A model generated the notes under the pieces. That model worked only from the letters and a program-made list of their open reading frames with translations, was not told where the DNA came from and did no database searches. A DNA stretch of 64,000 nucleotides from an uncultured Candidatus Saccharibacteria bacterium (GTDB lineage: Bacteria > Patescibacteriota > Minisyncoccia > Phycocordibacterales > JAKFXT01). The position numbers and the translations under genes are program-made. The stretch is from assembly GCA_964385825.1 (NCBI GenBank), contig CAYLPX010000002.1, positions 98,876 through 162,875 of the forward strand, in the 5' to 3' direction. Shown in pieces: positions 1 to 40,580 of the stretch (position 1 is its first letter; every line of letters starts with the position of its first letter).

Positions 1-274
1 AACCAAAAAGTGTTCCTTTCGTTAACTTAACCGCCTCCTCTCCCTTACCACTACATGAAGTTAGTGGTGAAAACAAACTCTCAGCGGTTGTCCAGGTTCC
101 CCGTGTTATGAGTAAGGTTGAAGCACCGCTTAGCGCCAACTCAACCGTTACCTCAACCCCGCTTACGGCCAAAGTAGATCCATATCGGGAACAAATATAA
201 CGTTTCTTTGCGTGTAACCACAAGACAAAGACGGTATTCTCTTATATTATTAAGCTACCTCACACACTTTTATA

Positions 275-805
275 GTGCTGGTATTTTTTATGCAGTTTCA
301 AGTTCCTCAATTCATTGAAGTGGAAGACAAGCTTTTCGGCCCTCTTACCTTAAAGCAGTTTATTTATCTTGCAGGTGGGGTAGGTATGTCAGCTATTCTT
401 TATTTTGTTATCCCATACCACTTTATCGCCATAATCCTAGCCGTTCCTTTTGTTGCCTTTTCCCTAGCCCTTGCCTTCTATCAAATAAACAGCAAGCCGT
501 TTGTAGAAGTCTTAGAGGCCGCCATTTCTTATTACTTCAAAAACAAGCTCTACATTTGGAAGAAAACCCCAAAAAAAGCAGAGGAGAAGCCCAAAGAAGC
601 TGATGAGGAAGCTTCGCTCGACACCCTTTTTGCCCCACGGCTTTCCGAAAGCAAGCTCAAAGACCTGGCGTGGAGCCTCGATGTAACTGACAAGCTCATT
701 AACAAGCGAGCAAAGCAAGAACAGTCGCTTACTTTCGACCAAGAAGAGCGTGAGAGAGTTGAGTTCCAAAAGAACTATGATCTTGGTAACAAATCCCACA
801 CCTAA
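275..805 (+). CDS. PrgI-family-like membrane protein of a type IV secretion-like cluster
   Basis: The N-terminus MQFQVPQFIEVEDKLFGPLTLKQF is followed by two TM helices and a charged C-terminal tail. It lies directly upstream of a VirB4-like ATPase. The family assignment is from memory of PrgI-family annotations in CPR genomes. Confidence 0.45.
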   Translation: MLVFFMQFQVPQFIEVEDKLFGPLTLKQFIYLAGGVGMSAILYFVIPYHFIAIILAVPFVAFSLALAFYQINSKPFVEVLEAAISYYFKNKLYIWKKTPKKAEEKPKEADEEASLDTLFAPRLSESKLKDLAWSLDVTDKLINKRAKQEQSLTFDQEERERVEFQKNYDLGNKSHT

Positions 806-810
806 ATCTT

Positions 811-1452
811 ATGGCAACCGAGCAAGCATCAGCAACACAAGAATTCGTCCCTATTAAAGAAGTGCGGGATGGGATTGTTCTTTTAAAAGATGGGGGACTT
901 CGTGCCATCCTTCTCACTTCTTCAATAAACTTTGCCCTTAAGTCACAAGATGAGCAAAACTCGGTAATTTTTCAATTCCAAAATTTCCTTAACTCACTAG
1001 ATTTTCAGGTTCAAATTTTCATTCAATCGCGCAAACTAGACATTCGCCCCTATATTGCACTCCTAGAGGATCGGTATCGTGAACAGGTAAATGATCTTCT
1101 AAAGATTCAAACTCGTGAATACATAGAGTTCATTAAGAGCTTTACCGAGAGCGCCAACATTATGACTAAGAGCTTTTTTATTGTAGTTCCCTATAACCCA
1201 GCAGGATTAACTGCTGAGTCGGTTGGTGGGATTTTCGGTAAGAAAAAGAAAGAGGAAGAAAAGGCCAAAGAAGCTTCTGCTCAATTTGAAGAAAACCGAA
1301 GCCAGCTGGAGCAACGTATTGCTGTTATTGAACAAGGACTTATTCGCACCGGTGTTCGTATCGTACAATTAGGAACTGAGGAGATCATAGAGCTCTACTA
1401 CAAGATCTTTAACCCCGGAGAACAGGACAAGCCAATTAAACTAAACGCCTAA
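811..1452 (+). CDS. hypothetical protein in the T4SS-like cluster
   Basis: This 213 aa ORF is tightly packed between the PrgI-like and VirB4-like genes. It has a charged KKKEEEKAKE linker and no recognisable motif. Confidence 0.4.
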   Translation: MATEQASATQEFVPIKEVRDGIVLLKDGGLRAILLTSSINFALKSQDEQNSVIFQFQNFLNSLDFQVQIFIQSRKLDIRPYIALLEDRYREQVNDLLKIQTREYIEFIKSFTESANIMTKSFFIVVPYNPAGLTAESVGGIFGKKKKEEEKAKEASAQFEENRSQLEQRIAVIEQGLIRTGVRIVQLGTEEIIELYYKIFNPGEQDKPIKLNA

Positions 1453-1457
1453 CCAAC

Positions 1458-3281
1458 ATGGGACTTTTCGATTTTTTAATAACAAAAAAAGAGGGTGGGG
1501 GAGGTAAAAACGATATTACCGCTATTTTACCGCGCGATATTTATGAGTCGGGGGTACTCGAGCTAAAAGATATCATTGCTCCCTCTGCCTTAAAAATTTC
1601 CCCTAAGGAACTCAACCTTGGCGAAAAGATTATCCGCACCTTCTTTGTTATTTCATATCCCCGCTTTTTAACCGAAAGTTGGTTCGCTCCCATCATCAAC
1701 CTAGACAAAGTATTTGATGCTTCTATTTTTATCCATCCTATAGAAACAGCCCGTATTCTGCGCCAATTCCAGAAGAAGGTTGCTGAAGTCCAGAGCCAGA
1801 TACACGACCGAGAAGAAAAGGGGTTGGTGCGCGACCCAGTTCTAGACACCGCGTATCAAGACCTAGAGCAACTCCGTGATGGACTACAACAAGCCCAAGA
1901 GCGTATTTTTGATGTAGGGCTATATATTTCTATCTATGGAGACTCTGATGCTGAGCTCGATAAGGTGGAGTCAGAAATTAAATCCATCCTTGAGTCTAAG
2001 TTAGTGTACGTAAAGCCGGCCCTGTTCCAACAAGAGCAAGGCTTTAAGAGCGTTATACCCCTTGGTAACGATGAGCTCGCTGTTCATTCTAAGCTCAACT
2101 CATCTCCACTCTCCAGTGTTTTTCCTTTCATTTCTTTTGACCTTACATCAGACAAAGGAATTCTCTATGGTATCAACCGACATAATGCAAGCCTTGTGCT
2201 TTTTGATCGCTTCTCACTTGAAAACTACAACTCAGTAGTGTTTGCTAAGTCTGGTTCTGGAAAGTCTTATACCACTAAACTTGAGATACTCCGCACCCTC
2301 ATGTTTGATACCGAAGTTATCGTGATTGACCCTGAACGTGAATATGAATACCTCGCTGAAGCCACGGGTGGACGCTATTTTAATGTGTCACTTAACTCTG
2401 AGCACCATATTAACCCCTTTGACTTACCTGTCCCACGTGAAGACGAGTCACCAGCCGACATTTTGCGCAGCAATATTGTGAACTTGGTCGGTCTTTTCCG
2501 TATTATGATGGGGGGACTTACCGCAGAGGAAGACGCTATCATTGATCGAGCGATTACTGAAACATATGCCTTAAAGGATATTAGTCCTGAATCAGACTTC
2601 ACCGCGATCGAACCCCCGCTTATGGCTGACTTTGAACTTGTACTCTCGGGTATGGAGGGCGGTGACTCGCTAGCACAGCGTCTTACTAAGTACACAAAAG
2701 GTACGTGGGCAGGCTTCATCAACAAGCCAACGAACGTGGACATAAACAAGAAGTTTGTGGTGTTCTCGGTTCGTGACATGGAAGACGAGCTGAAGCCGGT
2801 TGCCATGTACATCATTACCCACTTTATTTGGAATGCTATTCGCAAAGAGATAAAGAAGCGTCTCTTGGTGATTGATGAGGCTTGGTGGATGATGAAATCT
2901 GATGACACCGCCTCATTCTTATATAGCTTGGTAAAACGAGGACGTAAGTACTATCTTGGGGTAGCTACTATTACTCAGGACGTGGATGACTTTCTTAAAA
3001 GCCCCTATGGACTGCCTATTATTACCAACTCGTCACTCCAATTACTACTTAAGCAGTCACCTTCCTCTATAGACAATGTGCAGAAGATTTTCAATCTAAC
3101 TGAGGAAGAAAAGTACCTACTCCTAGAATCCGATGTGGGGGAGGGGATTTTCTTTGCTGGACTTAAACACGTGGCTATAAAGGTTATCGCCTCGTACACC
3201 GAAGATCAGATTATCACCTCTGACCCATCCCAAGTGCTCTCTATTAGGAAAGCTAAGAATGATCTGCGCTTCTCAAGCTAA
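1458..3281 (+). CDS. VirB4/TraC/TrbE-like type IV secretion ATPase
   Basis: The Walker A motif is AKSGSGKSYTTK, and a Walker B-like LLVIDEAWWMM is present. The 607 aa length and the position after a PrgI-like gene fit VirB4. Confidence 0.75.
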   Translation: MGLFDFLITKKEGGGGKNDITAILPRDIYESGVLELKDIIAPSALKISPKELNLGEKIIRTFFVISYPRFLTESWFAPIINLDKVFDASIFIHPIETARILRQFQKKVAEVQSQIHDREEKGLVRDPVLDTAYQDLEQLRDGLQQAQERIFDVGLYISIYGDSDAELDKVESEIKSILESKLVYVKPALFQQEQGFKSVIPLGNDELAVHSKLNSSPLSSVFPFISFDLTSDKGILYGINRHNASLVLFDRFSLENYNSVVFAKSGSGKSYTTKLEILRTLMFDTEVIVIDPEREYEYLAEATGGRYFNVSLNSEHHINPFDLPVPREDESPADILRSNIVNLVGLFRIMMGGLTAEEDAIIDRAITETYALKDISPESDFTAIEPPLMADFELVLSGMEGGDSLAQRLTKYTKGTWAGFINKPTNVDINKKFVVFSVRDMEDELKPVAMYIITHFIWNAIRKEIKKRLLVIDEAWWMMKSDDTASFLYSLVKRGRKYYLGVATITQDVDDFLKSPYGLPIITNSSLQLLLKQSPSSIDNVQKIFNLTEEEKYLLLESDVGEGIFFAGLKHVAIKVIASYTEDQIITSDPSQVLSIRKAKNDLRFSS

Positions 3282-3284
3282 TCC

Positions 3285-3944
3285 TTGCCCATGGAGCAAA
3301 ACAACGAGCAAACACAACGAATCACCAAAACTACCGCCGCTTTTATGATAGTGGTGGCGGTTTTTTTTGACCTCTTGCAGCTACTTCTCACTGTTCTCCT
3401 TATTGGTATTGTTTTGAACCCTGCCATAGATGTTGTAGCATTTCTTACCTTTTACCTTTGGTTCAAACTTAAAGGGGTTTCTCTTACCAGTAGCAACAAG
3501 CAGTTGATCGCTACTGTTAGCGGCTATATTGTAGAAATTATTCCTATCCTTAATGCCCTACCTGGTATTACCATAGCCACCATCGCTCGTATCATTGTGG
3601 TGAAAACTGAAGATACACTTTTAAAAAATAATGGTACGATTAGCGCAGTAGTAGGGACTGCTATGCAAAAAAAAGTAGGAGCTGATGACGAAGTCTCCAC
3701 TTCAGAAAAAAGTCCCCAGGAAAAACAGCGTGAGGCTTTTTCAAATGTAAAAGCCGCCAACAACCTTCGCCGTTTAAGCGAAGCCGACGAAGATATACCA
3801 CAAGAAAATCCTTCATCAGAGTCACAATTTCCTAAAGAGCCGACAACCTTACCCCAATCTAATTTTAAAACCCCACCTCCCCACATCGACCCCAAAGTTT
3901 CTACCCCCCATGAAATTCATCTCTCCCCAAACATTGAACACTAA
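3285..3944 (+). CDS. polytopic membrane protein of the T4SS-like cluster
   Basis: Three or four hydrophobic helices are followed by a Pro/Ser-rich tail. It may correspond to a VirB6/VirB3-like component. Confidence 0.35.
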   Translation: MPMEQNNEQTQRITKTTAAFMIVVAVFFDLLQLLLTVLLIGIVLNPAIDVVAFLTFYLWFKLKGVSLTSSNKQLIATVSGYIVEIIPILNALPGITIATIARIIVVKTEDTLLKNNGTISAVVGTAMQKKVGADDEVSTSEKSPQEKQREAFSNVKAANNLRRLSEADEDIPQENPSSESQFPKEPTTLPQSNFKTPPPHIDPKVSTPHEIHLSPNIEH

Positions 3945-4956
3945 TATTACTCCCCTGAAGCTTCTTTTGCTTACCTTGTTATTTTCCTTCCCCTTATTTT
4001 CTTTTGCACAAACAAATACAGCGGGGACTTCTTCACTTACCCCATACACAGAGGGGGTGAGTACTGTGGTGAGCCCCGAAAACCCTGGCCCTGGTAGTTT
4101 GGTTACTATCGATCTCCAGAGTTCCTTGGTTAACCTTGAAACCTCAACTATTGTTTGGAGCGTTAATGGTAAAGTGATTCAGTCCGGTCGTGATAGTAGA
4201 TCATTCTCTCTTCGCCTTGGTGCAGTTGGAAGTAAGAGTGTTGTTGATATTTATATTAAAACCACTACCCTTGGGACCCTGACTAAAACTTTAACTTTTG
4301 CCCCGACTAGTGTTGAACTCCTTTATGAAGCTGCTTCCTACACACCACCTTTCTATAAAGGAAAAGCACTTATACCATCAGAGGGCGTGGTTACTCTTTA
4401 CGCACTCCCAAACTTTAAATCAAATTCGGGGGCTACTCCTTCCTCAAACCTTGTTTTCACTTGGAAAAAAGATGGCGTAGTTGATGGAACTAATTCTGGA
4501 CTTGGGAAAAATAGTTATCGTTATGTTAATGGCAGGCTTCCGGAAGATGGTCCAACCATTGAAGTTTCGGTTACTGACCCCGCTACCAACCTTCGTGGCT
4601 ACGCTAGTTTTGCTGCCAAAGCAGTAAACCCTGATATTGTTTTCTACGAGAATAACCCCCTTCTTGGCGTCACCTTAAATCAAGCCATACCTTCTAACTA
4701 CACACTCACCAAACAAGAGCTCTCGTTAATAGCGTATCCCTTCTTTTTTGGTACAAAGAACCGCACCAATCAAAACCTTACCTATACATGGAACATTAAC
4801 AATAATCCTGTTCCAAGCAGTACCGATGATAAAGGGTTACTTACGGTGAGAAGTCCTGGAGGGAAGGGGGTGGCTAATATTGGTCTTGATATTGAGAACA
4901 AGACCCGCATTCTCCAAACAGCTTCTGGTATAGTATCTGTAAGTTATGGACAATAA
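3910..4956 (+). CDS. secreted protein of the T4SS-like cluster
   Basis: The N-terminal signal peptide is LLLLTLLFSFPLFSFAQT. The mature part is Thr/Ser/Asn-rich and beta-rich. Confidence 0.4.
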   Translation: MKFISPQTLNTNITPLKLLLLTLLFSFPLFSFAQTNTAGTSSLTPYTEGVSTVVSPENPGPGSLVTIDLQSSLVNLETSTIVWSVNGKVIQSGRDSRSFSLRLGAVGSKSVVDIYIKTTTLGTLTKTLTFAPTSVELLYEAASYTPPFYKGKALIPSEGVVTLYALPNFKSNSGATPSSNLVFTWKKDGVVDGTNSGLGKNSYRYVNGRLPEDGPTIEVSVTDPATNLRGYASFAAKAVNPDIVFYENNPLLGVTLNQAIPSNYTLTKQELSLIAYPFFFGTKNRTNQNLTYTWNINNNPVPSSTDDKGLLTVRSPGGKGVANIGLDIENKTRILQTASGIVSVSYGQ

Positions 4957-5626
4957 TAACGATATGTTTTCTTTCTTCACACAACTTAAGCGTCCTCAGT
5001 TCCTTATTATTTTTGGTGCCAGTTTTTTTATACCAGTAGCCTCAGCCCTTGCTCAAAATAAAGACTACACTCTCCTCGTTCCTATCCCTTCTTTTGGCTC
5101 ATCCTATAACCCTGGTCTTTTTGTGAACTATGTTCAAAAAATCATCACTCTTTCTATCACCCTTGCCGCCATTGCAGCTGTAGCGCGCATTACCATAGGG
5201 GGATTCCAATATATGGGAGGAGAATCTATGGACCAAAAGTCAGCAGGAAGAGAAGCGATCAAAGAAGCTATTTTTGGTCTTATTATTTTGGGTGCTTCTT
5301 ATCTGATCCTCAACACCATCAACCCAAACCTTCTTAACTTCAGACTGGAAGTTCCTGCGATTATAAGCGGGCAAAATACTCAACAAACACAGCAAACTGC
5401 AACTACTCAACCAGATGGAACAATTATAAACGGGGGTGCCGTTAGAGAAGCTCAGCAGGCCACTATTAACCAAAATGGTGTTGGAACGAGCCTTGACCCC
5501 GCTAGACAATATCAACTCCAAGAACCTGGTGGAGTTAATCAAAGAAATTTAACCTCTGAAAGTTGCCAATCCTGGGTAGCCGCTAAGGCTCGCCAAGGAA
5601 TTACAGCCTCTTGTGTCCCTCAATAA
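4946..5626 (+). CDS. TrbC/VirB2-like conjugative pilin
   Basis: A signal peptide is followed by two hydrophobic helices, ITLSITLAAIAAVARITIGGFQYM and AIFGLIILGASYLILNTI, separated by a charged loop. That topology is typical of VirB2/TrbC pilins. Confidence 0.45.
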   Translation: MDNNNDMFSFFTQLKRPQFLIIFGASFFIPVASALAQNKDYTLLVPIPSFGSSYNPGLFVNYVQKIITLSITLAAIAAVARITIGGFQYMGGESMDQKSAGREAIKEAIFGLIILGASYLILNTINPNLLNFRLEVPAIISGQNTQQTQQTATTQPDGTIINGGAVREAQQATINQNGVGTSLDPARQYQLQEPGGVNQRNLTSESCQSWVAAKARQGITASCVPQ

Positions 5627-5632
5627 TTCTCT

Positions 5633-6913
5633 ATGTCACGCACCACTGCCTTTAGCATCATAATCGGATTTGTACTTCTTTTTGGCGGGGGAGTAGCGTA
5701 CTGGTATTATTCTCTTTCAGGAAAGACACTCACCCCAGAACAAAATAATTCTTCAAACACCACCGGCTCTAATCCTTTCCCCTTTGGTCAAACAGGTCAA
5801 CCCAACACAAAACCAAACCAAACTGGTGTGGGGACCAGTACAACAGGAAGTGGTGAAACTCCCGCTCCAGTTGTTCGCGAAATCTCTTCTACACCAACAG
5901 GAAGCTTCTCTCCCTTTGTAGACAAAACTAATGGCACTTCGGTGCGCTATATTGAGCAAGAAACTGGGAATGTTTACGATGCCCCACTTGATATAACACT
6001 TACCAAACGAGTGAGTAATACTACTATTCCCAAAGTTCACCAAGCTATTTGGCTACCGCAGGCAAGATCATTCATTGCCCAATACTTGGGAGGAAATACT
6101 GAAACTATCCAAAGCTTTTACGGTGAGGTTAATCCTCAACAAACAGAAGGCGCTGAGGGGAACGTTACAGGAAAGTTCCTTGAGGACGGCATCACTTCTC
6201 TTATTTCTATCAGTTCATTTTCTGCAAGTACCACCTCAAAAAACCCAGGTAAAATCTTTTACACTAAAAATACAAATGCTGGCACCGATGGTTTTATCGC
6301 AGAGGGGAATGGCACTGCTATAACAAAAGTTTTTTCTTCCCCGCTCTCTGAGTGGTTACTACTTGGTGGGGGAGGGTCTACTGTCTACCTACAGACAAAA
6401 TCCTCTGGTCTTGCCTCTTCATACCTTTTTAGCCTTAACACTTCCTCAGGCTCACTAAGCAAGGTTTTAGGCAATATTGTCGGCCTTTCCTCTCTCCCGA
6501 ACGCAAAAGGAGATATGATTCTTTACTCTGAAACTGTGAACAAAGCCCCACTTCTTCACATATACAATGTCTCTAAAAATACTTATGGGACTATTACCCT
6601 CTCCACTTTAGCTGATAAATGTGTTTGGGCTGAAGGAAAAGGAGTTGTGAATGCTAAAATCTACTGTGCCGTTCCACAAACCATTCCGGTGGGGATAACC
6701 CTCCCTGATAGTTGGTATCAAGGTAAGACTACCTTTACTGACAATATCTGGGAGATTAACCCCACCTCGCTTGAAGCTAAAAAGGTGGCTTCACTTACTG
6801 AAAACTCATTTTATGTAGATATTTACAACCCCGCTCTTAGTTCGAATGGCTCCTATCTTTTGTTTATAAATAAAAGAGATCTTACTCTTTGGAGCGTGCG
6901 ACTTTCTAACTAA
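5633..6913 (+). CDS. membrane-anchored extracellular protein
   Basis: An N-terminal TM helix and a low-complexity S/T/G/N-rich linker precede a beta-rich domain. Confidence 0.4.
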   Translation: MSRTTAFSIIIGFVLLFGGGVAYWYYSLSGKTLTPEQNNSSNTTGSNPFPFGQTGQPNTKPNQTGVGTSTTGSGETPAPVVREISSTPTGSFSPFVDKTNGTSVRYIEQETGNVYDAPLDITLTKRVSNTTIPKVHQAIWLPQARSFIAQYLGGNTETIQSFYGEVNPQQTEGAEGNVTGKFLEDGITSLISISSFSASTTSKNPGKIFYTKNTNAGTDGFIAEGNGTAITKVFSSPLSEWLLLGGGGSTVYLQTKSSGLASSYLFSLNTSSGSLSKVLGNIVGLSSLPNAKGDMILYSETVNKAPLLHIYNVSKNTYGTITLSTLADKCVWAEGKGVVNAKIYCAVPQTIPVGITLPDSWYQGKTTFTDNIWEINPTSLEAKKVASLTENSFYVDIYNPALSSNGSYLLFINKRDLTLWSVRLSN

Positions 6914-6946
6914 AAAGTCCCTAAAAACACCACTAGCATGGTGTTT

Positions 6947-7402
6947 TTACTTATTCTCAACGTAGCAAATAACCACCTTTCGAAAAGGCCCTTCGCCTCG
7001 AGACTCTGTTTTAAGATTTGGGTGCTCGGCAAATACGCTATGTACCAGTAAACGTTCGTATGCCCCCATAGGCTCCATTTCAACCTCATGTTTGAAAGAA
7101 AGGGCTCTTTCTCCGAGAATTTTTGCTGCTTCTTTTATTCTTTCGGCCTCGCGCTTTCTGTAGCTATTAACATCAAGAAGAATTTTCTGCATAGCACCCT
7201 CTTCCTTTTCAAGCATTCTTCGCACTAGATGAGTTAACGCTTGGAGTGTTGCCCCCCTACTTCCGATTAAAAGTTCTGCCTCCTCGCTTTCTATCTTTGC
7301 TTCTATTTCTTCATTCTGCGTGGTGATTGTTACCGTGGAAAAAGAAATTGGTATTTTCGAGAGTAACTCTTCTATTGTTTTTTTGAGTTTCTCTTCTTTC
7401 AT
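6947..7402 (-). CDS. jag: Jag/KhpB RNA-binding protein (KH and R3H domains)
   Basis: The R3H-like region is GEGPFRKVVICYVE. It sits downstream of yidC in the conserved rpmH-rnpA-yidC-jag block. Confidence 0.7.
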   Translation of the reverse strand: MKEEKLKKTIEELLSKIPISFSTVTITTQNEEIEAKIESEEAELLIGSRGATLQALTHLVRRMLEKEEGAMQKILLDVNSYRKREAERIKEAAKILGERALSFKHEVEMEPMGAYERLLVHSVFAEHPNLKTESRGEGPFRKVVICYVENK

Positions 7403-7403
7403 T

Positions 7404-8120
7404 TTATTTCGTTTTTTTATGTTTTCGCAAAGCCAGTTCTTGCCCGATAGTAAAAAGGTTACTTACACAGAAATATAGTGCTACGACCGAGGAAAGGCTG
7501 TGACTAATAAAAATAATTATTAGTGGAAAAACATATTTCATTTGGATATTCATGCTCCGTGCCATGTCGTTTTTAAAGGAAGCTTCTTTACTTTCAGGAA
7601 GAGGGGGCATAGCAAGTTGTGCTTGAACGAATTGTGCTCCGCCCGCTATTAGAGCAAGCACCCAGCTTTTTTCAGCCATATGGAACATAAGGAACTCCAT
7701 TGAAATGCCTTGTGGGGGAGTTATAAAACTATAGAGATCTTGGAGGTGAATAGAGGGGAATCCTCCTTTATAGAAAATGAAGTAGAGCGCAAAGATAACT
7801 GGTAGTTGTACAAAAAGAGCCATGATACTAGAGAAAGGATTAACCCCCTCTTCTTTATAGACCTGCATAGTGGCAAGGGCGGTTGCCTGCCTGTCGTCTT
7901 TGTATTTAGTCCGTATAGCCTCTAGTTTTGGCTCAATATCCCTCATGCGCATTTGAGTAATGAGGGCCTTCTTAGTAAGGGGAAAGAGAGCGAACTTCAC
8001 CAAGAGAGTTGTTGCTATAACCGCAAGGGCTACTGAATGGTTCGGTAATACCCCAATCAAAAAAACAGCCAGATTATAGATTGGCTGATAGAAAATAGTG
8101 TGAAAAAAGCCGCCACTCAT
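7404..8120 (-). CDS. yidC: membrane protein insertase YidC (short form)
   Basis: A short 238 aa YidC/Oxa1-like polytopic membrane protein sits in the conserved position next to rnpA and jag. Confidence 0.8.
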   Translation of the reverse strand: MSGGFFHTIFYQPIYNLAVFLIGVLPNHSVALAVIATTLLVKFALFPLTKKALITQMRMRDIEPKLEAIRTKYKDDRQATALATMQVYKEEGVNPFSSIMALFVQLPVIFALYFIFYKGGFPSIHLQDLYSFITPPQGISMEFLMFHMAEKSWVLALIAGGAQFVQAQLAMPPLPESKEASFKNDMARSMNIQMKYVFPLIIIFISHSLSSVVALYFCVSNLFTIGQELALRKHKKTK

Positions 8121-8144
8121 AAAGGCTATTCTACCGTACTTTGT

Positions 8145-8486
8145 CTACTTTAAAAGTTTTACCCCCGTAAGTACGGCCTTAACCTCATTTCTTAGGGCAG
8201 AAAAAGGGATTTTAAGGGCCTCTTTTTTTACAAAAAAGATGCCAACTACTGGTTTTGCTGTTTGTGGTAAAAATTCCCCTATAAGTGAGTAGAGTTGCCT
8301 TTTTATATGGTTTCTTTCAGGTTTGTTTTTAGTTACTTTTTGGGCTACCACCACTGAAAAACGGCTAGCTATAAGGGTTTTCGGGCTCGAAATCCTTAAA
8401 GAAAAAAGGGGGGAGGAAACAAAAAAGCCCTGGCTGAAATTTTCAGCAAAGGTTTTTCTGTTTAAGCGCCTTTTTTTAGGCAACAT
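8145..8486 (-). CDS. rnpA: ribonuclease P protein component
   Basis: A basic 113 aa protein lies immediately downstream of rpmH, which is the conserved synteny. Confidence 0.7.
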   Translation of the reverse strand: MLPKKRRLNRKTFAENFSQGFFVSSPLFSLRISSPKTLIASRFSVVVAQKVTKNKPERNHIKRQLYSLIGEFLPQTAKPVVGIFFVKKEALKIPFSALRNEVKAVLTGVKLLK

Positions 8487-8491
8487 AGGAG

Positions 8492-8626
8492 TTATACGCT
8501 TAGCTTTTTCCTTCCTTGAGCACGACGGCGGGCGAGGACTTTCTTACCCCCTGCTGTACGGCCACGGACCAAAAAACCATGGGTGGTAGCTCGCTTTTTC
8601 TTTTTTGGTTGATATGTTTTTGACAT
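8492..8626 (-). CDS. rpmH: 50S ribosomal protein L34
   Basis: Manual reverse-complement translation gives [44 protein letters not shown] (44 aa). It is under the 60 aa cut-off of the ORF track, so it is not listed there. Confidence 0.85.
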
Positions 8627-8794: not shown

Positions 8795-10135
8795 ATGCTT
8801 GATACTAAACAATTGTGGGAAAGTGTTTTGGGCGATATTGAGCAAAGTGTTTCAAAGGCTACTTTTACCACATGGTTTAAGGATACAGGGATTATGAAGC
8901 AGGATGAGGGGGTAATTTATCTCTCTGTCCCAAATCAATTCGTGAAAGAATGGTTATACAACAAATATCATAAAACTATTCTTAAAAACCTTCGCGATCT
9001 CAATGAGCAGGTTCGTAATATTGAATACGTAGTAAATAAGGAACCGCCAAAGACCGTGGAACATATTCGTAAAGTTGAAAATCCCACTACTGAACTTCCC
9101 CTCGCCGATCATTATGTAAATAAAGAAGATAATTTAAATCCCCGCTACACTTTTGATTCTTTTGTGGTTGGTTCTTTTAATGATATGGCGTATGCAGCCG
9201 CCCAAGCTGTTATGCGCAAACCTGGTATTGCATACAATCCTTTGTTTATTTACGGAAACACAGGGCATGGGAAAACTCACCTTATTCAAGCGATAGGGAA
9301 CTATATTAAACACACTTCTGAGAATAAAAAGGTTTACTACATAACCTCAGAGAACTTTTATTTAGGTTTAGTTAACGCGATGCAAGAAAATAAAATTCTT
9401 TTATTTAAAGAAAAGTATCGAAAATACGATGTTTTTATTATGGACGATGTTCAGTTCCTATCAAATAAAGAAAAAACTCAGGAGGAGTTGTTCCATTTGT
9501 TTAATACCCTTTATGACAATAATAAACAAATTATCTTTTCTTCTGATAAACATATAAATCAGATTCCAAACCTAGAGGATCGTATTAAATCACGTTTTGG
9601 TGCTGGAATGATTGTAGACATCCAAGCCCCTGACTATGACTCTCGTGTGGCTATTATAAAAACAAAATGTGCGGTTCAAGGGATTATTCTACCAGAGGAG
9701 ATTATTGCATACCTTGCTTCTTCTGATAATAGTATCCGTGAATTGGAAGGTGCCCTAAACACCATTACCTATCAAATTCAATTAAAAAATAAAGTTCTTT
9801 CTCTTGCTGAAATAAAAAATATTATAAAAGAGACTAGTAAACCTAAAAAGATGTTTTCAGTGAAAGAGATTATAAAAACAATTGCTGATTTTTATGACAT
9901 TCCTGAAGCTAGTATCTATGAAAAAACAAGGAGAAAGGAAGTTGTTAAACCTCGACAGATTATTATGTACATCTTAAGAGAGGATTTTAAGGTTTCATAT
10001 CCCACGATTGGAGAAAAACTTGGTGGAAGAGATCATACAACAGTTATTCATTCATGCGAGAAAATTAAACATGACATCAAAGAAGATATGCAGTTAAGTG
10101 AGGAGATAGATCGGATTAAAACTTTATTAAAGTAG
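8795..10135 (+). CDS. dnaA: chromosomal replication initiator DnaA
   Basis: Walker A GNTGHGKTHL, the AAA+ sensor motifs and the C-terminal DNA-binding motif TIGEKLGGRDHTTVIHSCEKI are all present. Confidence 0.92.
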   Translation: MLDTKQLWESVLGDIEQSVSKATFTTWFKDTGIMKQDEGVIYLSVPNQFVKEWLYNKYHKTILKNLRDLNEQVRNIEYVVNKEPPKTVEHIRKVENPTTELPLADHYVNKEDNLNPRYTFDSFVVGSFNDMAYAAAQAVMRKPGIAYNPLFIYGNTGHGKTHLIQAIGNYIKHTSENKKVYYITSENFYLGLVNAMQENKILLFKEKYRKYDVFIMDDVQFLSNKEKTQEELFHLFNTLYDNNKQIIFSSDKHINQIPNLEDRIKSRFGAGMIVDIQAPDYDSRVAIIKTKCAVQGIILPEEIIAYLASSDNSIRELEGALNTITYQIQLKNKVLSLAEIKNIIKETSKPKKMFSVKEIIKTIADFYDIPEASIYEKTRRKEVVKPRQIIMYILREDFKVSYPTIGEKLGGRDHTTVIHSCEKIKHDIKEDMQLSEEIDRIKTLLK

Positions 10136-10315
10136 GGAAAAGGTGTGGAAAAGATTTGTATAAGTTTAGGAAAAAGACCAAAGTTATACACAAAAAAAAT
10201 TAAAAATATTTTTATGCCAAAACTATACACAGTAAAAAAACTTCTCTCTCTTAAAAACCCTATATTTTTAGGGGTTAAAAAGAAATCCACTTATCCACTG
10301 TATAATTAGCAACGT
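10136..10315. promoter_or_regulatory. putative oriC: DnaA-box cluster and AT-rich unwinding region
   Basis: Four 9-mers are within one mismatch of TTATCCACA: TGTGGAAAA at 10144, TTATACACA at 10184, CTATACACA at 10222 and TTATCCACT at 10291. The region is very AT-rich and sits between dnaA and dnaN. Confidence 0.55.
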
Positions 10316-11410
10316 ATGAAAATAGAATGTAATAAAGATAAGTTACAAGAATTTGTAACTAAAATAGAAAAAACAACTAGCAGAAATGCCACATTACCTA
10401 TACTTGCTTGTATTCTTCTTGTTGCAAAAGATAAAACTCTGACACTCAAAGCAACCAATCTTGAAGTTGGTAGTGAGTTGGTGCTCCCAGTGAAAATAGA
10501 AAAGGAGGGGGTGGTGGCTCTTTCAGGGAGCATGCTTTCTCAAACTCTCTCTTCTTTAAAAACAACCAAAAGCCTCTTTTTAGAAGAAAAAGAGGGGAAT
10601 TTAGAGTTAAAAACAAACGAAACAACTGTTTTATTAAAAACAATAAGTTACGAGGATTTTCCTCTTATTCCGCGCATAGAAGCTGAAACAAAAATAAAGA
10701 TTAAAGTAAAGGAGTTAATTTTAGGTATAAAGTCAGTGGTAAACAGTGCTGCACTTTCAACTATACGACCAGAATTAGGGAGTATTTATATTTATCAAGA
10801 AACAAATACTCTTGTTTTTGTGGCAACAGACGCTTTTCGTTTGGCTGAGAAAAAGATTGTTGTAAAACAAATAGAACAATTCCCCTCTATTCTTATTCCA
10901 TATAAAAATGCTTTAGAGATCGTACGTCTTTTTGATGGGGTAGATGAAGAGGTAGATCTTTTAATTACTAAAAACCAAATAAGCCTTGAGGGAGGAGGAG
11001 TTTTTATAACTTCTCGAGTAGTTGATGGAGTTTTTCCGGATTATACCCAAATTATACCAAAGGAATATATAACTACGGTATTAGTTCTAAAGCAAGATAT
11101 ATTAAATGGAATAAAAAGTCTTTCGGTTTTTTCAGATAAGTTTAACCAGATCCTTTTTACAGTTCATAAAGAAGGGGTTACTTTAGAAACAAAAAACAAT
11201 GATGTGGGGGAAGGGAAGACGTTAATTGTGGGTAAGGTAACTGGCGAAACACTTACACGTAAGTTTAACCAAAAATATATTACTGATGCATTTTCTACTA
11301 TAACTGATGATTCAGTTTTACTGTCTTTTGCCGATGAAAGAAAACCGTTAGTGATAGAAGGGGCCTCAAATAAAAGTTTTAAATACTTGGTGATGCCGAT
11401 GAATAATTAA
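10316..11410 (+). CDS. dnaN: DNA polymerase III beta sliding clamp
   Basis: A 364 aa three-domain beta-clamp pattern lies immediately after dnaA. Confidence 0.85.
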   Translation: MKIECNKDKLQEFVTKIEKTTSRNATLPILACILLVAKDKTLTLKATNLEVGSELVLPVKIEKEGVVALSGSMLSQTLSSLKTTKSLFLEEKEGNLELKTNETTVLLKTISYEDFPLIPRIEAETKIKIKVKELILGIKSVVNSAALSTIRPELGSIYIYQETNTLVFVATDAFRLAEKKIVVKQIEQFPSILIPYKNALEIVRLFDGVDEEVDLLITKNQISLEGGGVFITSRVVDGVFPDYTQIIPKEYITTVLVLKQDILNGIKSLSVFSDKFNQILFTVHKEGVTLETKNNDVGEGKTLIVGKVTGETLTRKFNQKYITDAFSTITDDSVLLSFADERKPLVIEGASNKSFKYLVMPMNN

Positions 11411-18621: not shown

Positions 18622-20307
18622 CTATAGTCCTAGGTCTATAACACGAGCCAATTCTTCAAGGGTAGTAGTTCCCTGTAGTATTTTTATGTACCCATCTTGC
18701 TTCAAAGAGAGCATGTTTTGATTCGCGGCGGCAGCCACAATATCTCCTTCACTTGGGTTCTCATTTATAGCCTTGTTTACTTCGGGTGTCATAAGGATCG
18801 CTTCAAAAATACCAACTCGTCCTTTGTACCCAAGTCCGCTACACGCATCACACCCTACAGCTTCAAATATATGCTCTGTTTGTAGATTGTCTGGCTTCTC
18901 CGGAGCATTAGCTAGTTCTTTATCAAATAGTGTTTTAGTTTCAGGTGGAATGGGAATTGGCTTACTACACTTACTGCAGAGTTTGCGCACCAAACGCTGG
19001 GCGATGGCGACATTCACTGCTGAACTTATAACTTTTGGATTTACTCCAAGATCAATGAGGCGAGGGAATGCCCCAGCAGCATTGTTAGTGTGGAGGGTTG
19101 AGAGCACTAGGTGCCCCGTAAGACCGGCATTGATTGCAATTTCGGCCGTTTCATCATCGCGGATTTCACCAACCATGATAACATCAGGGTCTTGGCGAAG
19201 TACTGAACGCAGTCCCTGCGAAAAATTATAACTTTTATGATCAACTTGAGTTTGTACAATACCAGGGAGGTGATATTCAATAGGGTCTTCGATAGTGATT
19301 ATTTTAATTTCGGAATTATGAACCTTGCGGAGAAAGGCGTAGAGCGTTGTAGTCTTTCCGCTTCCTGTTGGACCCGTGTTAAGGATCATGCCGTTCGGGC
19401 GATGGATTTCGTGATCAAGGATTTTGAAAAGTTTAGGTGAAATACCAAGTTCCTCCATAGGTACTTGGATGGATTTGGGGTTAAGAATACGAAGTACTAC
19501 GGATTCGCTATACGCACCTGGTAGGAGACTGGTACGGATTTCAATTTCACTCTCAGCTATTTTAATAGAGAAGCGGCCATCTTGCGCCTCATTTTTCACA
19601 TTAAGTTTTAAACGTGAGAGCAGTTTGATACGCGAGAGGAGGAGTTGGAATGTTTCGCGGTCAAAGTTGATAATGTCGGTAAGTACACCGTCCAAGCGGT
19701 AGCGCAGCCGCACGTATGCTTCTTCTGGTTCCACGTGGATATCAGACGCTCCCATGGAGAGGGCTCCCGCCAAAACAATTTCGAGCATACGGGAAATGCG
19801 ATAGGCTTTTTTCTCAGCCAGTATGTCTTCTATAAGTTTCTGAACATCAACAAGAGAACGAACCTTAGAAACAAACCCTTCTATCTCCTCACTTGATATG
19901 TCCAGCACTCCCGCCTTGCTCTCTGATGCAAATGATATCTCTTTATACCGTGCCCACGCTCGTTCAAGGCTACCTTTGGACACGATGTAGGGAGTAACGT
20001 TGTAGTTGCGGCGGGTAAGGTCTTCTAAAACTTGTTTTGTTTCGGGACTTTCTGGGGCGAGCACGGCTACGCGGAGTTTGCGCCCTGTGGCATCAAACAC
20101 AGCAATGTTGGCGCGGCGGGACTCGTCTTCTGGAATTAGACGCAGGGCATCTCCCTCAATAGACATACGGGAAAGGTCTAGGTATTCCACTCCATATTTG
20201 CCCGAGAGGATCATGGCTAGCTCCTCTTCCTCTTTTTTGAGTAATTCGTCTACTTTTTTATTCTGTTTGTCTTCGTCAAAGGTGAGCATTTGTCCCAATA
20301 ATACCAT
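18622..20307 (-). CDS. pilB: type IV pilus assembly ATPase PilB (GspE family)
   Basis: Walker A GPTGSGKTTTLYA, Asp/His boxes and the C-terminal zinc tetracysteine CSKCSK...CDACSG are present. Confidence 0.8.
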   Translation of the reverse strand: MVLLGQMLTFDEDKQNKKVDELLKKEEEELAMILSGKYGVEYLDLSRMSIEGDALRLIPEDESRRANIAVFDATGRKLRVAVLAPESPETKQVLEDLTRRNYNVTPYIVSKGSLERAWARYKEISFASESKAGVLDISSEEIEGFVSKVRSLVDVQKLIEDILAEKKAYRISRMLEIVLAGALSMGASDIHVEPEEAYVRLRYRLDGVLTDIINFDRETFQLLLSRIKLLSRLKLNVKNEAQDGRFSIKIAESEIEIRTSLLPGAYSESVVLRILNPKSIQVPMEELGISPKLFKILDHEIHRPNGMILNTGPTGSGKTTTLYAFLRKVHNSEIKIITIEDPIEYHLPGIVQTQVDHKSYNFSQGLRSVLRQDPDVIMVGEIRDDETAEIAINAGLTGHLVLSTLHTNNAAGAFPRLIDLGVNPKVISSAVNVAIAQRLVRKLCSKCSKPIPIPPETKTLFDKELANAPEKPDNLQTEHIFEAVGCDACSGLGYKGRVGIFEAILMTPEVNKAINENPSEGDIVAAAANQNMLSLKQDGYIKILQGTTTLEELARVIDLGL

Positions 20308-27363: not shown

Positions 27364-28269
27364 TTAATACGTTTTAAAATAAGCGGCGGTGTTGCCACTA
27401 AGGTCTAGGATTTTTACGAGCTCACGTTGGTACTGCCAGAGGCTTTCGGGTTGCTTGAGGTATATGCGCCATTCTGGCTTATAAAAGTCGGGATCAAGTT
27501 TGTGATTCTCGACGCAAGTATTGTAGTTAATTTTGCTGGTAACGTAAGCCGTACATTCTTGGCCCAAATCGTCCGGTATGTCATTAAGTGGCATGGTGCA
27601 TGAAGAAATTCCTTCTATGTAGTTGAGACATTGGTTGCGGCGGTTGGCAGGAAAGTTTGGAAGATCCTCGTCCCCTGGTCTTGGGCACTCATAGGGGAGT
27701 GGTGGATTAAAGGTGGCACTTTGATTGAAGTAGCCGGTACATTTGTTTACGCGAAATGAATACCCAACTGGAGAAGTACCAGAAGTAATGTACACAGTAT
27801 CTCCCGGTGAGACGTATACCGGATCGTCATAATTGTTACGAGCAAAATCAGGGCGATAGACAGCTCGCGGAATAGTTGTGCCATGTCCTGTTGCAGCGCT
27901 TTGTATACGCATGCCGGATAGAAGAGTGCGGTTTGGGGCGTTTGACGCAAGGCGGAGAACAACATACTCATCGCGTGGATTGTCGGTCCCTAGGCTACCC
28001 TGGTCTAGAGTTAGGTAATTGCTGAGCGATGATAATGGGCCTATTGCCGTTGATTCAGCCGTACTCCTTTTTAACTCACTAGTCTCGTTACTGATGCGCT
28101 GTACTTCACTACTGATGCCTTCCACAGTAGTTGGAGCTTTGTAGGAACCATCGGCGTTGCGGTTAGCGCTATGAGCTCCACCGTTATAGAGCCACATAAA
28201 AATAAGGATGCCGAAAAAAGCAAATATGAAACCATACCCACCGCCACTACTTGGTTTAACTTCTGCCAT
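27364..28269 (-). CDS. hypothetical secreted Cys-rich protein
   Basis: An N-terminal TM/signal sequence is followed by about 10 Cys in the mature part. Confidence 0.4.
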   Translation of the reverse strand: MAEVKPSSGGGYGFIFAFFGILIFMWLYNGGAHSANRNADGSYKAPTTVEGISSEVQRISNETSELKRSTAESTAIGPLSSLSNYLTLDQGSLGTDNPRDEYVVLRLASNAPNRTLLSGMRIQSAATGHGTTIPRAVYRPDFARNNYDDPVYVSPGDTVYITSGTSPVGYSFRVNKCTGYFNQSATFNPPLPYECPRPGDEDLPNFPANRRNQCLNYIEGISSCTMPLNDIPDDLGQECTAYVTSKINYNTCVENHKLDPDFYKPEWRIYLKQPESLWQYQRELVKILDLSGNTAAYFKTY

Positions 28270-33572: not shown

Positions 33573-34694
33573 ATGGCTTTTAGCTATTCCTCACACAGAC
33601 GAATGCATTCAGAAAAACCTTTTTTTCGGGTGTTCCCCCCACCAGAGTTATTACTCATGCCATCAGTTGGACTCGATATTTCAGAGCATACCGCACGTTT
33701 TGTAGAACTAGTTACCAAAAAGGGCAAAATACAAATAGGAAGGCATGGCGAACAGGTTATACCTGAGGGGACATTTTCACTCGGGGAAATTAAAGATGTT
33801 GGGACACTTCGAAGTGCACTTATTGCCTTGCGTCGAGAATACGACCTTTCTTTTGTGCGTGTTTCATTGCCAGAGGAAAAGGCCTATCTATTTCGTACTG
33901 AAGTCCCTCATTTAAGCCCAGAGGAAACAAGAGAGAACATTGCTTTTCAGCTCGAAGAGCATGTGCCGATTGGAGCGGCTGATGCGGTGTTTGATTACAG
34001 TATTGTGAACCCGCTCTTTGGGAAGATTAGTGCTTCTATGCGGGAGGTGGTGGTTTCTGTGTTCCCAAGGAATTTTATTGAAAGCTATATTTCAGTATTG
34101 GATGGAGCAGGGCTCACCCCACTATCGCTTGAAATGGAAGCTTCAGCCATGGCCCGTTCACTAGTGCCACAAAACAATCTTAAGACGTACATGATCGTTG
34201 ATTTTGGCTACAAGCGAACAGGAATCATTATTGTTAGTCGGGGGGCGGTGCATTTATCAACGACCGTGGATATTGGGGGAGAGGCGTTGACAGAGGCGAT
34301 AGAGAAAAAACTTTCGATAAGCCGCGATGAAGCAGAAAACTTAAAACGAGAAGGAGCCTTTTCGCGCAATGGGCGATATCGAGAAATGTTCCCACTTCTT
34401 ATTGAGTCTATACAAAGTCTGAAAGATCAGGTGAATAAACTCTTTATTTACTGGCACAACCATCCCGACAAAAAAGATGCTACACCACCCCCTATTGAAA
34501 AAATTATTTTAACAGGAGGGGATGCTAACCTTGAAGGGCTTTCAGATCATTTTGCGCTGGCTATGCGTGTACCAGCCGAGGTAGGGAATATTTGGAGTAA
34601 TGTACTTCACACTGAGGAAGATGTACCGAGTATTCCGTTTACTGAGTCACTATCATATGCAACAGCGGTGGGGCTCGCTATGCGCGACCTCTAA
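33573..34694 (+). CDS. pilM: type IV pilus assembly protein PilM
   Basis: An actin-like ATPase fold (VGLDISEHTARFVEL, IVDFGYKRTG), followed by pilN/pilO-like genes. The true start may be the internal Met at 33657. Confidence 0.7.
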   Translation: MAFSYSSHRRMHSEKPFFRVFPPPELLLMPSVGLDISEHTARFVELVTKKGKIQIGRHGEQVIPEGTFSLGEIKDVGTLRSALIALRREYDLSFVRVSLPEEKAYLFRTEVPHLSPEETRENIAFQLEEHVPIGAADAVFDYSIVNPLFGKISASMREVVVSVFPRNFIESYISVLDGAGLTPLSLEMEASAMARSLVPQNNLKTYMIVDFGYKRTGIIIVSRGAVHLSTTVDIGGEALTEAIEKKLSISRDEAENLKREGAFSRNGRYREMFPLLIESIQSLKDQVNKLFIYWHNHPDKKDATPPPIEKIILTGGDANLEGLSDHFALAMRVPAEVGNIWSNVLHTEEDVPSIPFTESLSYATAVGLAMRDL

Positions 34695-34706
34695 TATTTC
34701 TGATAT

Positions 34707-35234
34707 ATGTACAATTTACTACCAGATGAACAGAAAGATGCTATTAAAAGAGAGTATCATTTTCGCGTGGCCATCATAGCGTCGCGGTTCGTATTACTTG
34801 CTACTATAGTTGGCTTTGTATTTTTGATACCATCTTTTGTACTTCTTTTTACTAAGCGTTCAGAACTAACGGACCAGATAACAGCGAGTGAGCGAGTGCA
34901 GGCAGAAACAACGAAAGAGGTTTCAGTAGATAGTACCAAGCAGCTCAATGAAGAAGTTGAAATATTAAAAGGGGTTAATCTTGACGCGCACCCAGAAGAG
35001 CTTATTAAAAAAGTTTTCGACAGCAGACCCAAAAATATTCAAATAAGCAAAGCGGTCTATGGACTAGTTGGGACGAGTAGTTCTGTTTCTATAGAAGGGG
35101 TGGCTAATAGCATTGATGATCTTCTTGTATTTAAAAAGGTACTTCTCACTATTCCGCCCTTTAAGTCGGCAACTTTCCCAGTAGAGTTATTAACTAAGCG
35201 GAGTAATGTTTCATTTGTAATAACTGCTCAATAG
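34707..35234 (+). CDS. pilN: PilN-like bitopic membrane protein
   Basis: A single N-terminal TM helix and a coiled coil, in the position after pilM. Confidence 0.5.
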   Translation: MYNLLPDEQKDAIKREYHFRVAIIASRFVLLATIVGFVFLIPSFVLLFTKRSELTDQITASERVQAETTKEVSVDSTKQLNEEVEILKGVNLDAHPEELIKKVFDSRPKNIQISKAVYGLVGTSSSVSIEGVANSIDDLLVFKKVLLTIPPFKSATFPVELLTKRSNVSFVITAQ

Positions 35235-35244
35235 ATAAAGCTGT

Positions 35245-35787
35245 ATGCAACTTTTTGAACGAACAAAACGAGCTTTGATACTAAATAGTGTAATCCTATT
35301 GCTGTTTATTGGTGGTTTTTCTGGGGTGGTGTACTATTTCTTTTCTTTACATGATGAGGTTGCCGCTCTTGAAGCAAAAGTTGCGGAGGTGAAAAGTAAT
35401 GAGGAAGACATGGCAACTTTAAAGAAAAATCTGCAGGATGTTTCGGGTAGTAAGGATGCATTAGAATCACTTTTTGTAACAAGCGACAACGAAGCTGATT
35501 TTATAAAATCACTTGAAACGCTGGCTAGCTCTACTAATGTGGCACTTGATATAACCGCACTAAGGCACGAGGCGGGGCCGGCAAAATCTCGTTTTGAATA
35601 TGTAACTGTGCAGGGGAATACGGTGGGCAAACTTTCTGATGTGTATCGCTTTTTAAACTTACTCAGCCGTTTTCCCAAAGCTCTTGAAGTAAAGCAGTTG
35701 CAGCTTGAACTTATGCCAAGTGATGAGAAGAAAAAAACACATGAATGGCGAGGCAGCTTTAATGCAAAGGCACTTAAAATAAAATAG
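35245..35787 (+). CDS. pilO: PilO-like bitopic membrane protein
   Basis: A single TM helix, a coiled coil and a C-terminal domain, in the position after pilN. Confidence 0.45.
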   Translation: MQLFERTKRALILNSVILLLFIGGFSGVVYYFFSLHDEVAALEAKVAEVKSNEEDMATLKKNLQDVSGSKDALESLFVTSDNEADFIKSLETLASSTNVALDITALRHEAGPAKSRFEYVTVQGNTVGKLSDVYRFLNLLSRFPKALEVKQLQLELMPSDEKKKTHEWRGSFNAKALKIK

Positions 35788-40085: not shown

Positions 40086-40101
40086 GGGTGCGTTCTATAA
40101 T

Positions 40102-40554: not shown

Positions 40555-40580
40555 AAAACTCGCGGAAGCGAGTTTTTTGT
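40551..40580 (+). terminator. rho-independent terminator
   Basis: AAAAAACTCGC-GGAA-GCGAGTTTTTT. Confidence 0.6.

Follow-up and report, generated by a model that had tools for sequence, protein, structure and literature searches.

We analyzed a 64,000-nucleotide (nt) stretch of DNA (here called the window; positions 98,876 to 162,875 of contig CAYLPX010000002.1, assembly GCA_964385825.1) deposited as an uncultured Candidatus Saccharibacteria bacterium. The region from 275 to 6913 holds a genuine, intact type IV secretion system (T4SS)-like operon. It lies next to the replication origin on a chromosome of the Paceibacteria, which belong to the candidate phyla radiation (CPR). We put the probability at about 0.7 that this operon encodes an origin-proximal, chromosomally fixed T4SS-like apparatus of the Patescibacteria VirB4 clade that assembles a pilus or channel. 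This figure blends two judgments of unequal strength: that the apparatus is a functional, nonconjugative member of the clade is very probable, and that it works by the particular mechanism, a pilus or channel, is about as likely as not. The clade itself descends from monoderm conjugation machinery of the MPF_FATA type.

The region comprises seven open reading frames (ORFs) on the plus strand (ORF1 to ORF7; Table 1), all of them intact and tightly packed. Starting from ORF1, the first three gaps measure 5, 5, and 3 to 9 nt; the next two pairs of genes overlap by 35 and 11 nt, and 6 nt separate the last pair. They are followed by jag-yidC-rnpA-rpmH and then by dnaA-dnaN, in agreement with a preliminary description of this DNA, made from the letters alone, as a tight codirectional operon upstream of rpmH and dnaA. 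The operon is truncated by the left edge of the window. A public contig that is 100% identical to the window (L081) reaches 9,190 bp further left and reads uvrD, ksgA, genes for a 354-amino-acid (aa) TSP3-repeat protein and for 546-, 831-, and 380-aa proteins, and then ORF1 to ORF7. The complete block thus has 11 genes and stands between ksgA on one side and jag-yidC-rnpA-rpmH and dnaA-dnaN on the other.

The VirB4 motor and the proteins encoded with it

The operon had been said to encode a 607-aa VirB4-type ATPase, and the profile searches bore this out. ORF3 matched the NCBIfam model NF045971 (CD1110-type VirB4) at 2.1e-110 with 370 bits, above the curated cutoff of 325, and the match covered positions 182 to 733 of the 752 in the model. 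The protein carries a Walker A motif (AKSGSGKS, residues 263 to 270) and a Walker B motif (LLVIDE, residues 469 to 474), and it matched the solved VirB4 C-terminal domain 4AG5 (4.6e-42), P-loop_TraG (1.7e-27), and TrwK (3e-6). When a hidden Markov model (HMM) of the VirB4 orthologues was compared with components of the pCF10 and pSK41 systems, PrgJ (8e-50) and TrsE (5.8e-39) were matched, and a phmmer search of the window reading frames with PrgJ as the query returned VirB4 at 9.3e-42. CD1110 is the best-matching VirB4 family and was matched above its own cutoff, which places the protein, by profile match and not by tree, closest to the MPF_FATA prototypes. Its place in the Patescibacteria VirB4 clade is likewise assigned from near-identity to clade members rather than from a tree.

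ORF2 had been listed as a hypothetical protein. That label has to be replaced, because the matches support a TrsD-like protein homologous to the N-terminal domain of VirB4. It matched NF041427 (TrsD/TraD) at 3.8e-8, a score of 33 bits that stays below the curated cutoff of 200, and it matched the N-terminal parts of VirB4 models (TIGR00929 positions 4 to 179, NF045971 positions 2 to 118, and NF045975 positions 101 to 233). A precomputed annotation assigns it to PF26593 (TraC-like), and the phmmer comparison with pSK41 TrsD gave an E value of 0.006; a TrsD profile run against the sequences in PDB returned nothing meaningful. Because ORF2 aligns with N-terminal model positions and ORF3 with positions 182 to 733, the two proteins tile one full-length VirB4. 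The division is the rule among relatives: of 80 loci, 79 have ORF2 as an ORF of its own.

The PrgI-like protein of the preliminary description proved to be ORF1, which scored above the curated cutoff of Pfam PF12666 (PrgI; 4.2e-11, 43.7 bits, cutoff 27). It has transmembrane (TM) helices at residues 29 to 47 and 50 to 68 and 17 invariant columns among 31 orthologues. The orthologues and the public gene calls begin MQFQVPQF, at the ATG at position 290, and the GTG at 275 that had been taken as the start is probably not the start of ORF1. Ortholog HMMs were also compared with a database of 36 pCF10 and pSK41 proteins. PrgI and TrsC appeared there as weak top matches only (E values of 0.007 to 0.016), ORF4, ORF5, ORF7, and the upstream proteins had no significant match, and VirB4 was the sole component with one.

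The description of ORF6 as a TrbC/VirB2-like pilin held for the family and not for the window sequence taken alone. ORF6 itself fell below the cutoff of PF18895 (T4SS_pilin; 3.2e-4, 21.1 bits, cutoff 26.6). Nearly all of its orthologues matched that family (34 of 35; best, 2.4e-10), and three matched TrbC/VirB2 (PF04956; 8.3e-7). With hydrophobic segments at residues 18 to 36 (the signal peptide), 62 to 80, and 104 to 122, ORF6 appears to be a VirB2-like pilin, an assignment supported at the family level. The core is followed by a Q/T-rich C-terminal extension of about 95 aa (residues ~126 to 226; window positions 5321 to 5626), and the orthologous pilins carry extensions of variable length, with a median of ~190 aa beyond the core and a maximum of 470 aa. 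In pili of the VirB2/TraA type the termini face outward, and the extension would therefore decorate the surface of the pilus. A single pilin gene was present in 63 of 67 loci; in a few others the pilin gene is duplicated, or one ORF combines two pilin cores. Variation in extension or pilin number was noted at L012:13882-15306, L016:13517-16363, and L043:8462-10686. One pilin orthologue matched the He_PIG Ig-like family and another matched Peptidase_M15_4, both as whole-protein matches of unchecked position. A pilin profile compared with the sequences in PDB gave nothing meaningful.

The preliminary description also spoke of secreted proteins, and these are present: ORF5 has a signal peptide and ORF7 has an N-terminal TM anchor. 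Neither protein, nor ORF4, has a family in Pfam or NCBIfam, and structures of ORF5 and ORF7 were predicted from alignments of 64 to 66 homologues. The AlphaFold2 model of ORF5 (64-sequence alignment) is all beta, with a predicted local distance difference test score (pLDDT) of 88.9 and an N-terminal hydrophobic segment at residues 15 to 33. Foldseek matched it to proteins with multiple immunoglobulin (Ig) or fibronectin type III (FnIII) domains at an E value of ~1e-8, and the gene is syntenic in 76 loci. The ORF7 model (pLDDT, 89.7; predicted template modeling score, 0.81) consists of a TM helix at residues 3 to 29, a disordered linker at residues 35 to 73, and a propeller at residues ~80 to 426, for which the nearest solved folds are the TolB, tricorn, and prolyl-oligopeptidase propellers (E value, ~1e-7). 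Some homologues of ORF7 carry PD40 or PG_binding_1 domains. The predicted folds are generic ones of the scaffold or adhesin kind; they would place both proteins outside the membrane and do not define a function.

Polytopic membrane proteins had been announced in the plural, and only one, ORF4, lies inside the window. An alignment of 33 orthologues shows a conserved core of ~100 aa with ~4 TM segments and an invariant Asp27, followed by a variable, low-complexity C-terminal tail. The idea that ORF4 arose as a divergent copy of PrgI or the pilin was rejected in both versions (hhalign probability, <1% for each). No VirB6 was found in the window. The 831-aa protein encoded upstream, on L081, has a signal peptide, 5 or 6 TM helices, and a hydrophilic coiled-coil tail of ~400 aa, and this architecture of TM helices and a long tail is that described for “extended VirB6” proteins (PMC12857230). 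The protein may be called VirB6-like by topology alone, its sequence support being negligible. An HMM match to pSK41 TrsG (3.7e-6) was rejected as evidence for VirB6; it amounted to a single TM helix followed by a gapped tail.

Conservation, inheritance, and relation to known systems

To compare the locus across species, ORF3 was scanned against one genome per species. This recovered more than 582 relatives, and the best 80 by VirB4 similarity were used for the locus comparison. All 80 belong to the Patescibacteria (Zambryski-, Taylor-, Nomura-, and Campbellbacteria and other Paceibacteria), with VirB4 identities of 79 to 96%; together with a published system near dnaA, these genomes uphold the earlier remark that similar reduced T4SS-like sets occur in Patescibacteria. 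In most of the 80 loci, wherever the contig reaches, the order is kept: (ksgA) four genes, PrgI, TrsD, VirB4, and ORF4 to ORF7, with jag, yidC, rnpA, and rpmH downstream, then dnaA and dnaN, and then pbp1A. An orthologue of the 380-aa protein, the product of the last of the four block genes to the left of the window, was detected in 33 of the 80. Identity to the window protein was higher for VirB4 than for DnaA in each of the 54 loci in which both could be paired, a contrast that may be inflated by the ranking of the loci by VirB4 similarity. For VirB4 to be better conserved than DnaA is unusual for a conjugation-derived protein.

Several features point to a replication origin next to the block. 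The GC skew is negative over positions 1 to 7000 and positive thereafter, with the change of sign at ~7 to 9 kb, and the G+C fraction falls to 0.33 over 9 to 12 kb, around the dnaA-dnaN spacer. Within this 180-bp spacer, three DnaA-box-like 9-mers with one mismatch each cluster at 10144 to 10299, and this segment is a likely oriC element; over the whole window, such boxes were no more frequent than chance predicts (20, with 15.3 expected), and it is only the clustering in the spacer that is suggestive. The T4SS block lies on the plus strand to the left of dnaA and oriC (8.7 to 10.3 kb), so that its transcription runs toward the origin and meets the leftward replication fork head-on. The head-on orientation recurred in every locus examined, and the block was convergent with jag-yidC-rnpA-rpmH wherever both were visible. 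The published gene-dosage argument (PMC12102498) does not address this orientation.

In line with the preliminary description, no relaxase or VirD4 was found in the window. Pfam searches of the 30 largest other ORFs of the window, which are mostly housekeeping genes, revealed no relaxase, VirD4/TcpA, or integrase, and phmmer searches of all 451 window frames with PcfC, TrsK, PcfG, Nes, and MobV gave no match. The 9 kb upstream were covered by precomputed Pfam matches on gene calls only, which show a UvrD helicase, RrnaAD (KsgA), and TSP3 repeats; no scan for a relaxase, a type IV coupling protein (T4CP), or an integrase was made there. The G+C fraction of the cluster (0.42 to 0.44) is the same as that of the remaining window. 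From the fixed order and position, the host-like G+C, and a window free of relaxase, T4CP, and integrase, we conclude that this is a vertically inherited chromosomal machine and neither a conjugative element or integrative and conjugative element (ICE) nor a decaying remnant.

Each of those two origins would have to be argued against this record. An ordinary conjugative element, either an ICE or an integrated plasmid, lying near the origin by accident would account for the homology of VirB4, PrgI, and TrsD to conjugation genes of pCF10, pSK41, and CTn2. It would not be expected to lack a relaxase, a T4CP (both searched for in the window), an integrase, and a flanking tRNA or repeat, to occupy the same position in the same gene order in most of 80 species, or to have the G+C of its host and a VirB4 more conserved than DnaA. 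Relaxases, moreover, occur in only 103 of 3,035 genomes (PMC12102498). This explanation is effectively refuted and retains only a very small probability. The earlier view that the system may act in something other than conjugation stands on the same ground, namely, the fixed chromosomal locus, the window without relaxase or VirD4, and a literature that presumes such systems to be nonconjugative. A functionless, decaying remnant of an ancient conjugative element would fit the component set, which is reduced relative to those of pCF10 and pSK41 and includes no recognized VirB1, VirB8, or T4CP. Against decay stand the intact, closely spaced or overlapping ORFs, the intact catalytic motifs, the cross-species identities of VirB4 (79 to 96%) and TrsD (60 to 77%), and the essentiality of the homologous system of Southlakia epibionticum (below). 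Conservation effectively refutes this explanation, and its probability is slighter still.

Papers of 2023 to 2025 had already described both this system and its location beside dnaA (PMC12102498, PMC10633639, and PMC12857230). Quinonero-Coronel et al. (2025, PMC12102498) found that the VirB4 proteins of Patescibacteria form a monophyletic clade within MPF_FATA and that, of the components associated with it, TrsD is the most abundant. They reported PrgI/VirB3, VirB6, and PF18895/VirB2-like pilins near virB4, almost no relaxases, and T4CP homologues that were mostly distant, and they found the T4SS near dnaA, dnaN, rnpA, rpmH, and ksgA in Paceibacteria and Microgenomatia. The same T4SS, near dnaA and without a relaxase, is presumed in the literature to be nonconjugative. 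The window locus is an instance of that system and differs from it in nothing essential. It has virB4 with a TrsD-like protein and PrgI/VirB3 adjacent, a VirB2-like pilin assigned to PF18895 at the family level, no relaxase or T4CP nearby, and the same neighbors (dnaA, dnaN, rnpA, rpmH, and ksgA), and its VirB4 best matches the CD1110 MPF_FATA type. In a review they are classed together as a new group of T4SSs, possibly one that builds a pilus in a monoderm (PMC12857230).

The closest experimental reference is the cluster SEML1_0006 to SEML1_0019 of Southlakia epibionticum, which is essential for epibiotic growth by transposon sequencing, whereas comEC is not (PMC10633639 and PMC12857230), and in which no coupling protein or relaxase is recognizable (Wang et al. 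2023, PMC10633639). Like the window cluster, the Southlakia ML1 T4SS is chromosomal and close to the origin, and its core genes stand in the same order, with a large VirB6-like polytopic protein followed by PrgI, a protein in the position of TrsD, and VirB4; it also has an exported Ig-like protein and PF18895 pilins. A six-pilin array, a VirB1-like lysozyme/peptidase, and a VirB8-like NTF2 protein are found in Southlakia only; the window cluster has one pilin and no recognizable hydrolase or NTF2 protein, and it adds the beta-propeller protein and the small 4-TM protein.

With the MPF_FATA systems (trs of pSK41 and pGO1, prg/pcf of pCF10, and CTn2) the window cluster shares the homology of VirB4, a monoderm-type set without VirB7, VirB9, and VirB10, and the order VirB3-like, TrsD-like, VirB4 with a split VirB4, as in trsC-trsD-trsE of pSK41. 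It differs in that searches of the window cluster detected neither a T4CP (PcfC/TrsK) or relaxase nor a VirB1 hydrolase or VirB8-like protein, in having a VirB2-like pilin, which is reportedly absent from Gram-positive T4SS classes (PMC12102498), and in being chromosomal, vertically inherited, and nonmobile. The archaeal Ced and Ted systems resemble it as chromosomal, non-self-transmissible combinations of a VirB4-family ATPase with a VirB2-like pilin and no relaxase or T4CP. The likeness to CedB, however, is confined to the P-loop core (37.8 bits against a cutoff of 700), and no CedA homologue was found. What the present locus adds to the literature is the 11-gene block with its flanks, the usually single, extended pilin, the two accessory folds, and the head-on orientation.

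Possible mechanism and role of the apparatus

With no coupling ATPase or relaxase in cis and with vertical inheritance, the machine does not mobilize itself. In T4SSs, VirB4 powers pilin dislocation and pilus biogenesis, VirD4 recruits the substrate, and assembly of the T-pilus is independent of VirD4. Because VirB4 can thus power pilus assembly without VirD4, we infer a pilus or channel driven by VirB4 here. In the mechanism that we propose, VirB4 hexamers would be docked to the membrane through PrgI/VirB3 and TrsD, at a VirB6-like platform. VirB4 would extract pilin from the membrane, and a pilus or channel would be built across the monoderm envelope, for which the Ig-like and propeller proteins, once exported, could provide a wall-spanning scaffold or host-contact parts. 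The apparatus would most likely serve host attachment and the exchange of macromolecules with the host cell.

A number of observations weigh against this proposal. The pilin is atypical in its long C-terminal extension, and its polymerization is putative. For the VirB6-like platform, Pfam TrbL touched only 2 of 45 pooled sequences (25 of the ORF4 type and 20 orthologues of the 831-aa protein), at E values of ~1e-3, and a profile of the 831-aa protein met only coiled-coil noise among the PDB sequences. Neither a VirB8-like (NTF2) protein nor a VirB1-like hydrolase was recognized by Pfam or NCBIfam among the 11 cluster proteins scanned (the upstream four as their orthologues in locus L001), and the ortholog HMMs gave no significant match to PrgK, TrsG, PrgL, or PrgD. 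The selection of loci by VirB4 similarity, noted above, tempers the conservation argument. The gene for a T4CP could lie at another place in the genome; many VirD4 homologues are reported far from virB4 (PMC12102498). Essentiality of the T4SS has been shown only in Saccharimonadia, a class different from Paceibacteria (PMC10633639).

Two other roles draw on parts of the same evidence. The first is import of DNA or nucleotides, as in archaeal Ced/Ted or Helicobacter ComB, which would feed an organism unable to make nucleotides. The parts present, VirB4 and a VirB2-like pilin without a neighboring relaxase or T4CP, are those of Ced, ORF3 has a weak, partial match to CedB, and the authors of the survey favor import of DNA or other macromolecules (PMC12102498); that comEC is dispensable for growth of Southlakia means that another uptake route may exist. 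The CedB match (NF041017), however, spans just ~70 residues around Walker B, far below the cutoff, no CedA-like or ComB-specific component was recognized among the cluster proteins, and profile scans found no DNA-binding or nuclease protein in the cluster. Wang et al. (PMC10633639) argued, moreover, that the absent coupling protein and relaxase suggest that DNA may not be transported at all. We consider a dedicated import machine unlikely.

The second is translocation of effector proteins into or onto the host, which the Bordetella Ptl and Brucella VirB systems both accomplish without a coupling protein. Protein-secreting T4SSs without a T4CP exist (PMC12102498 and PMC12857230), protein export or an alternative role was proposed by Wang et al. 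(PMC10633639), and the operon does encode secreted proteins. Those exported partners, though, have scaffold or adhesin folds and are syntenic in the way of structural parts, and profile searches of the cluster (Pfam and NCBIfam) and of the window (Pfam, 30 largest other ORFs) turned up no candidate effector or toxin domain. The Ptl toxin subunits, furthermore, cross the inner membrane by the general secretory pathway, a step of the diderm envelope that monoderms do not have. A translocator of this kind is similarly doubtful.

A further, speculative form of the pilus or channel reading, which we think improbable as a whole, is that a conjugation-derived machine may have become, in this Paceibacteria lineage, a VirB4-only pilus system and, with it, an essential feeding organelle instead of a secretion system, a conduit for DNA, nucleotides, lipids, or proteins of the host. 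The single pilin with a large, fast-evolving C-terminal surface domain, in some species with an Ig-like or peptidoglycan-peptidase module, and the dedicated Ig-repeat and propeller partners would be parts of that organelle. If the machine did have a feeding role, that role would explain both the conservation of VirB4 above that of DnaA and an operon kept in place next to oriC despite its head-on orientation.

The T4SS is among the few conspicuous machines retained by the ultrasmall, host-dependent CPR bacteria, and it is essential for epibiotic growth in the one species tested. The window reveals no new kind of system; as a Paceibacteria example of the 11-gene block it is clean and complete, and the flanks are included. 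The accessory genes, which the published survey (PMC12102498) did not annotate, are seen to encode conserved envelope proteins, two of them with confident predicted folds, and the motor is seen to be under strong constraint. These points could guide structural modeling or work on the few cultivated pairs of Paceibacteria and their hosts.

Flanking features and other genes of the window

The features of the locus are collected in Table 1. Scans for promoters and terminators gave counts not above the shuffled expectation, and only the hairpin at 6922 to 6949 and the site at 222 to 250 are positionally sensible. The first is likely a bidirectional terminator and the second is possibly an internal promoter. 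An Rfam scan of the window detected tRNAs only.

Table 1. Features of the T4SS-like locus and its flanks, with the median identity of related proteins to the window protein
Feature	Position	Strand	Basis or remark	Median identity
Four upstream block genes	L081 3004-9390	left of window	No confident family for any, including the TSP3-repeat and 831-aa proteins	
3' end (last 66 codons) of conserved 380-aa upstream gene	1..199	+	Frame ends ...VDPYREQI (stop); full gene L081 8248-9390	
Promoter-like site AAGACA-17-TATTAT	222..250	+	In 90-nt gap before PrgI gene; consensus match only	
ORF1, PrgI/VirB3-like two-TM membrane protein, 171 aa	290..805	+	PF12666; start ATG 290	50%
ORF2, TrsD-like soluble protein, stand-alone homologue of VirB4 N-terminal domain	811..1452	+	NF041427 and N-terminal VirB4 model matches	64% (range 60-77%)
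ORF3, VirB4 ATPase, middle and C-terminal P-loop domains, 607 aa	1458..3281	+	NF045971, P-loop_TraG, 4AG5, Walker motifs	81%
ORF4, small membrane protein	3291..3944	+	No family match; TM prediction, orthologue alignment	
ORF5, exported protein, signal peptide/anchor and three predicted tandem Ig/FnIII-like beta-sandwich domains	3910..4956	+	AlphaFold2, Foldseek	31-36% (ORF5 to ORF7)
ORF6, putative VirB2-like T4SS pilin	4946..5626	+	Signal peptide, two hydrophobic helices, C-terminal extension	31-36% (ORF5 to ORF7)
ORF7, membrane-anchored extracytoplasmic beta-propeller protein	5633..6913	+	Predicted structure	31-36% (ORF5 to ORF7)
Inverted repeat, perfect, 11-12 bp	6922..6949	.	Exactly between stop codons of convergent ORF7 and jag	
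jag, yidC, rnpA, rpmH	6947..8626	-	Convergent with cluster	YidC 43%; RpmH 64%
dnaA and dnaN	8795..11410	+	Gene context; dnaA 8795-10135	DnaA 61%; DnaN 44%

Elsewhere in the window are genes of a type IV pilus, a surface machine separate from the T4SS. They comprise a PilB-type ATPase at 18622 to 20307 on the minus strand (T2SSE at 1e-117, with an MshEN domain) and PilM at 33573 to 34694 on the plus strand (2.6e-32), after which two small ORFs, probably at 34707 to 35787 on the same strand, could be PilN and PilO. Four minus-strand ORFs had no Pfam match at an E value of ≤1e-4, namely, those at 27364 to 28269 (301 aa), 40006 to 40956 (316 aa), 59460 to 61877 (805 aa), and 62749 to 63684 (311 aa). 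The window also encodes a phosphoketolase (XFP) adjoining acetate kinase (48691 to 52214, minus strand), a malic enzyme (54298 to 55434, minus strand), and a GH26 glycoside hydrolase (42450 to 43631, plus strand), a set typical of the fermentative and host-glycan-related metabolism of CPR bacteria.

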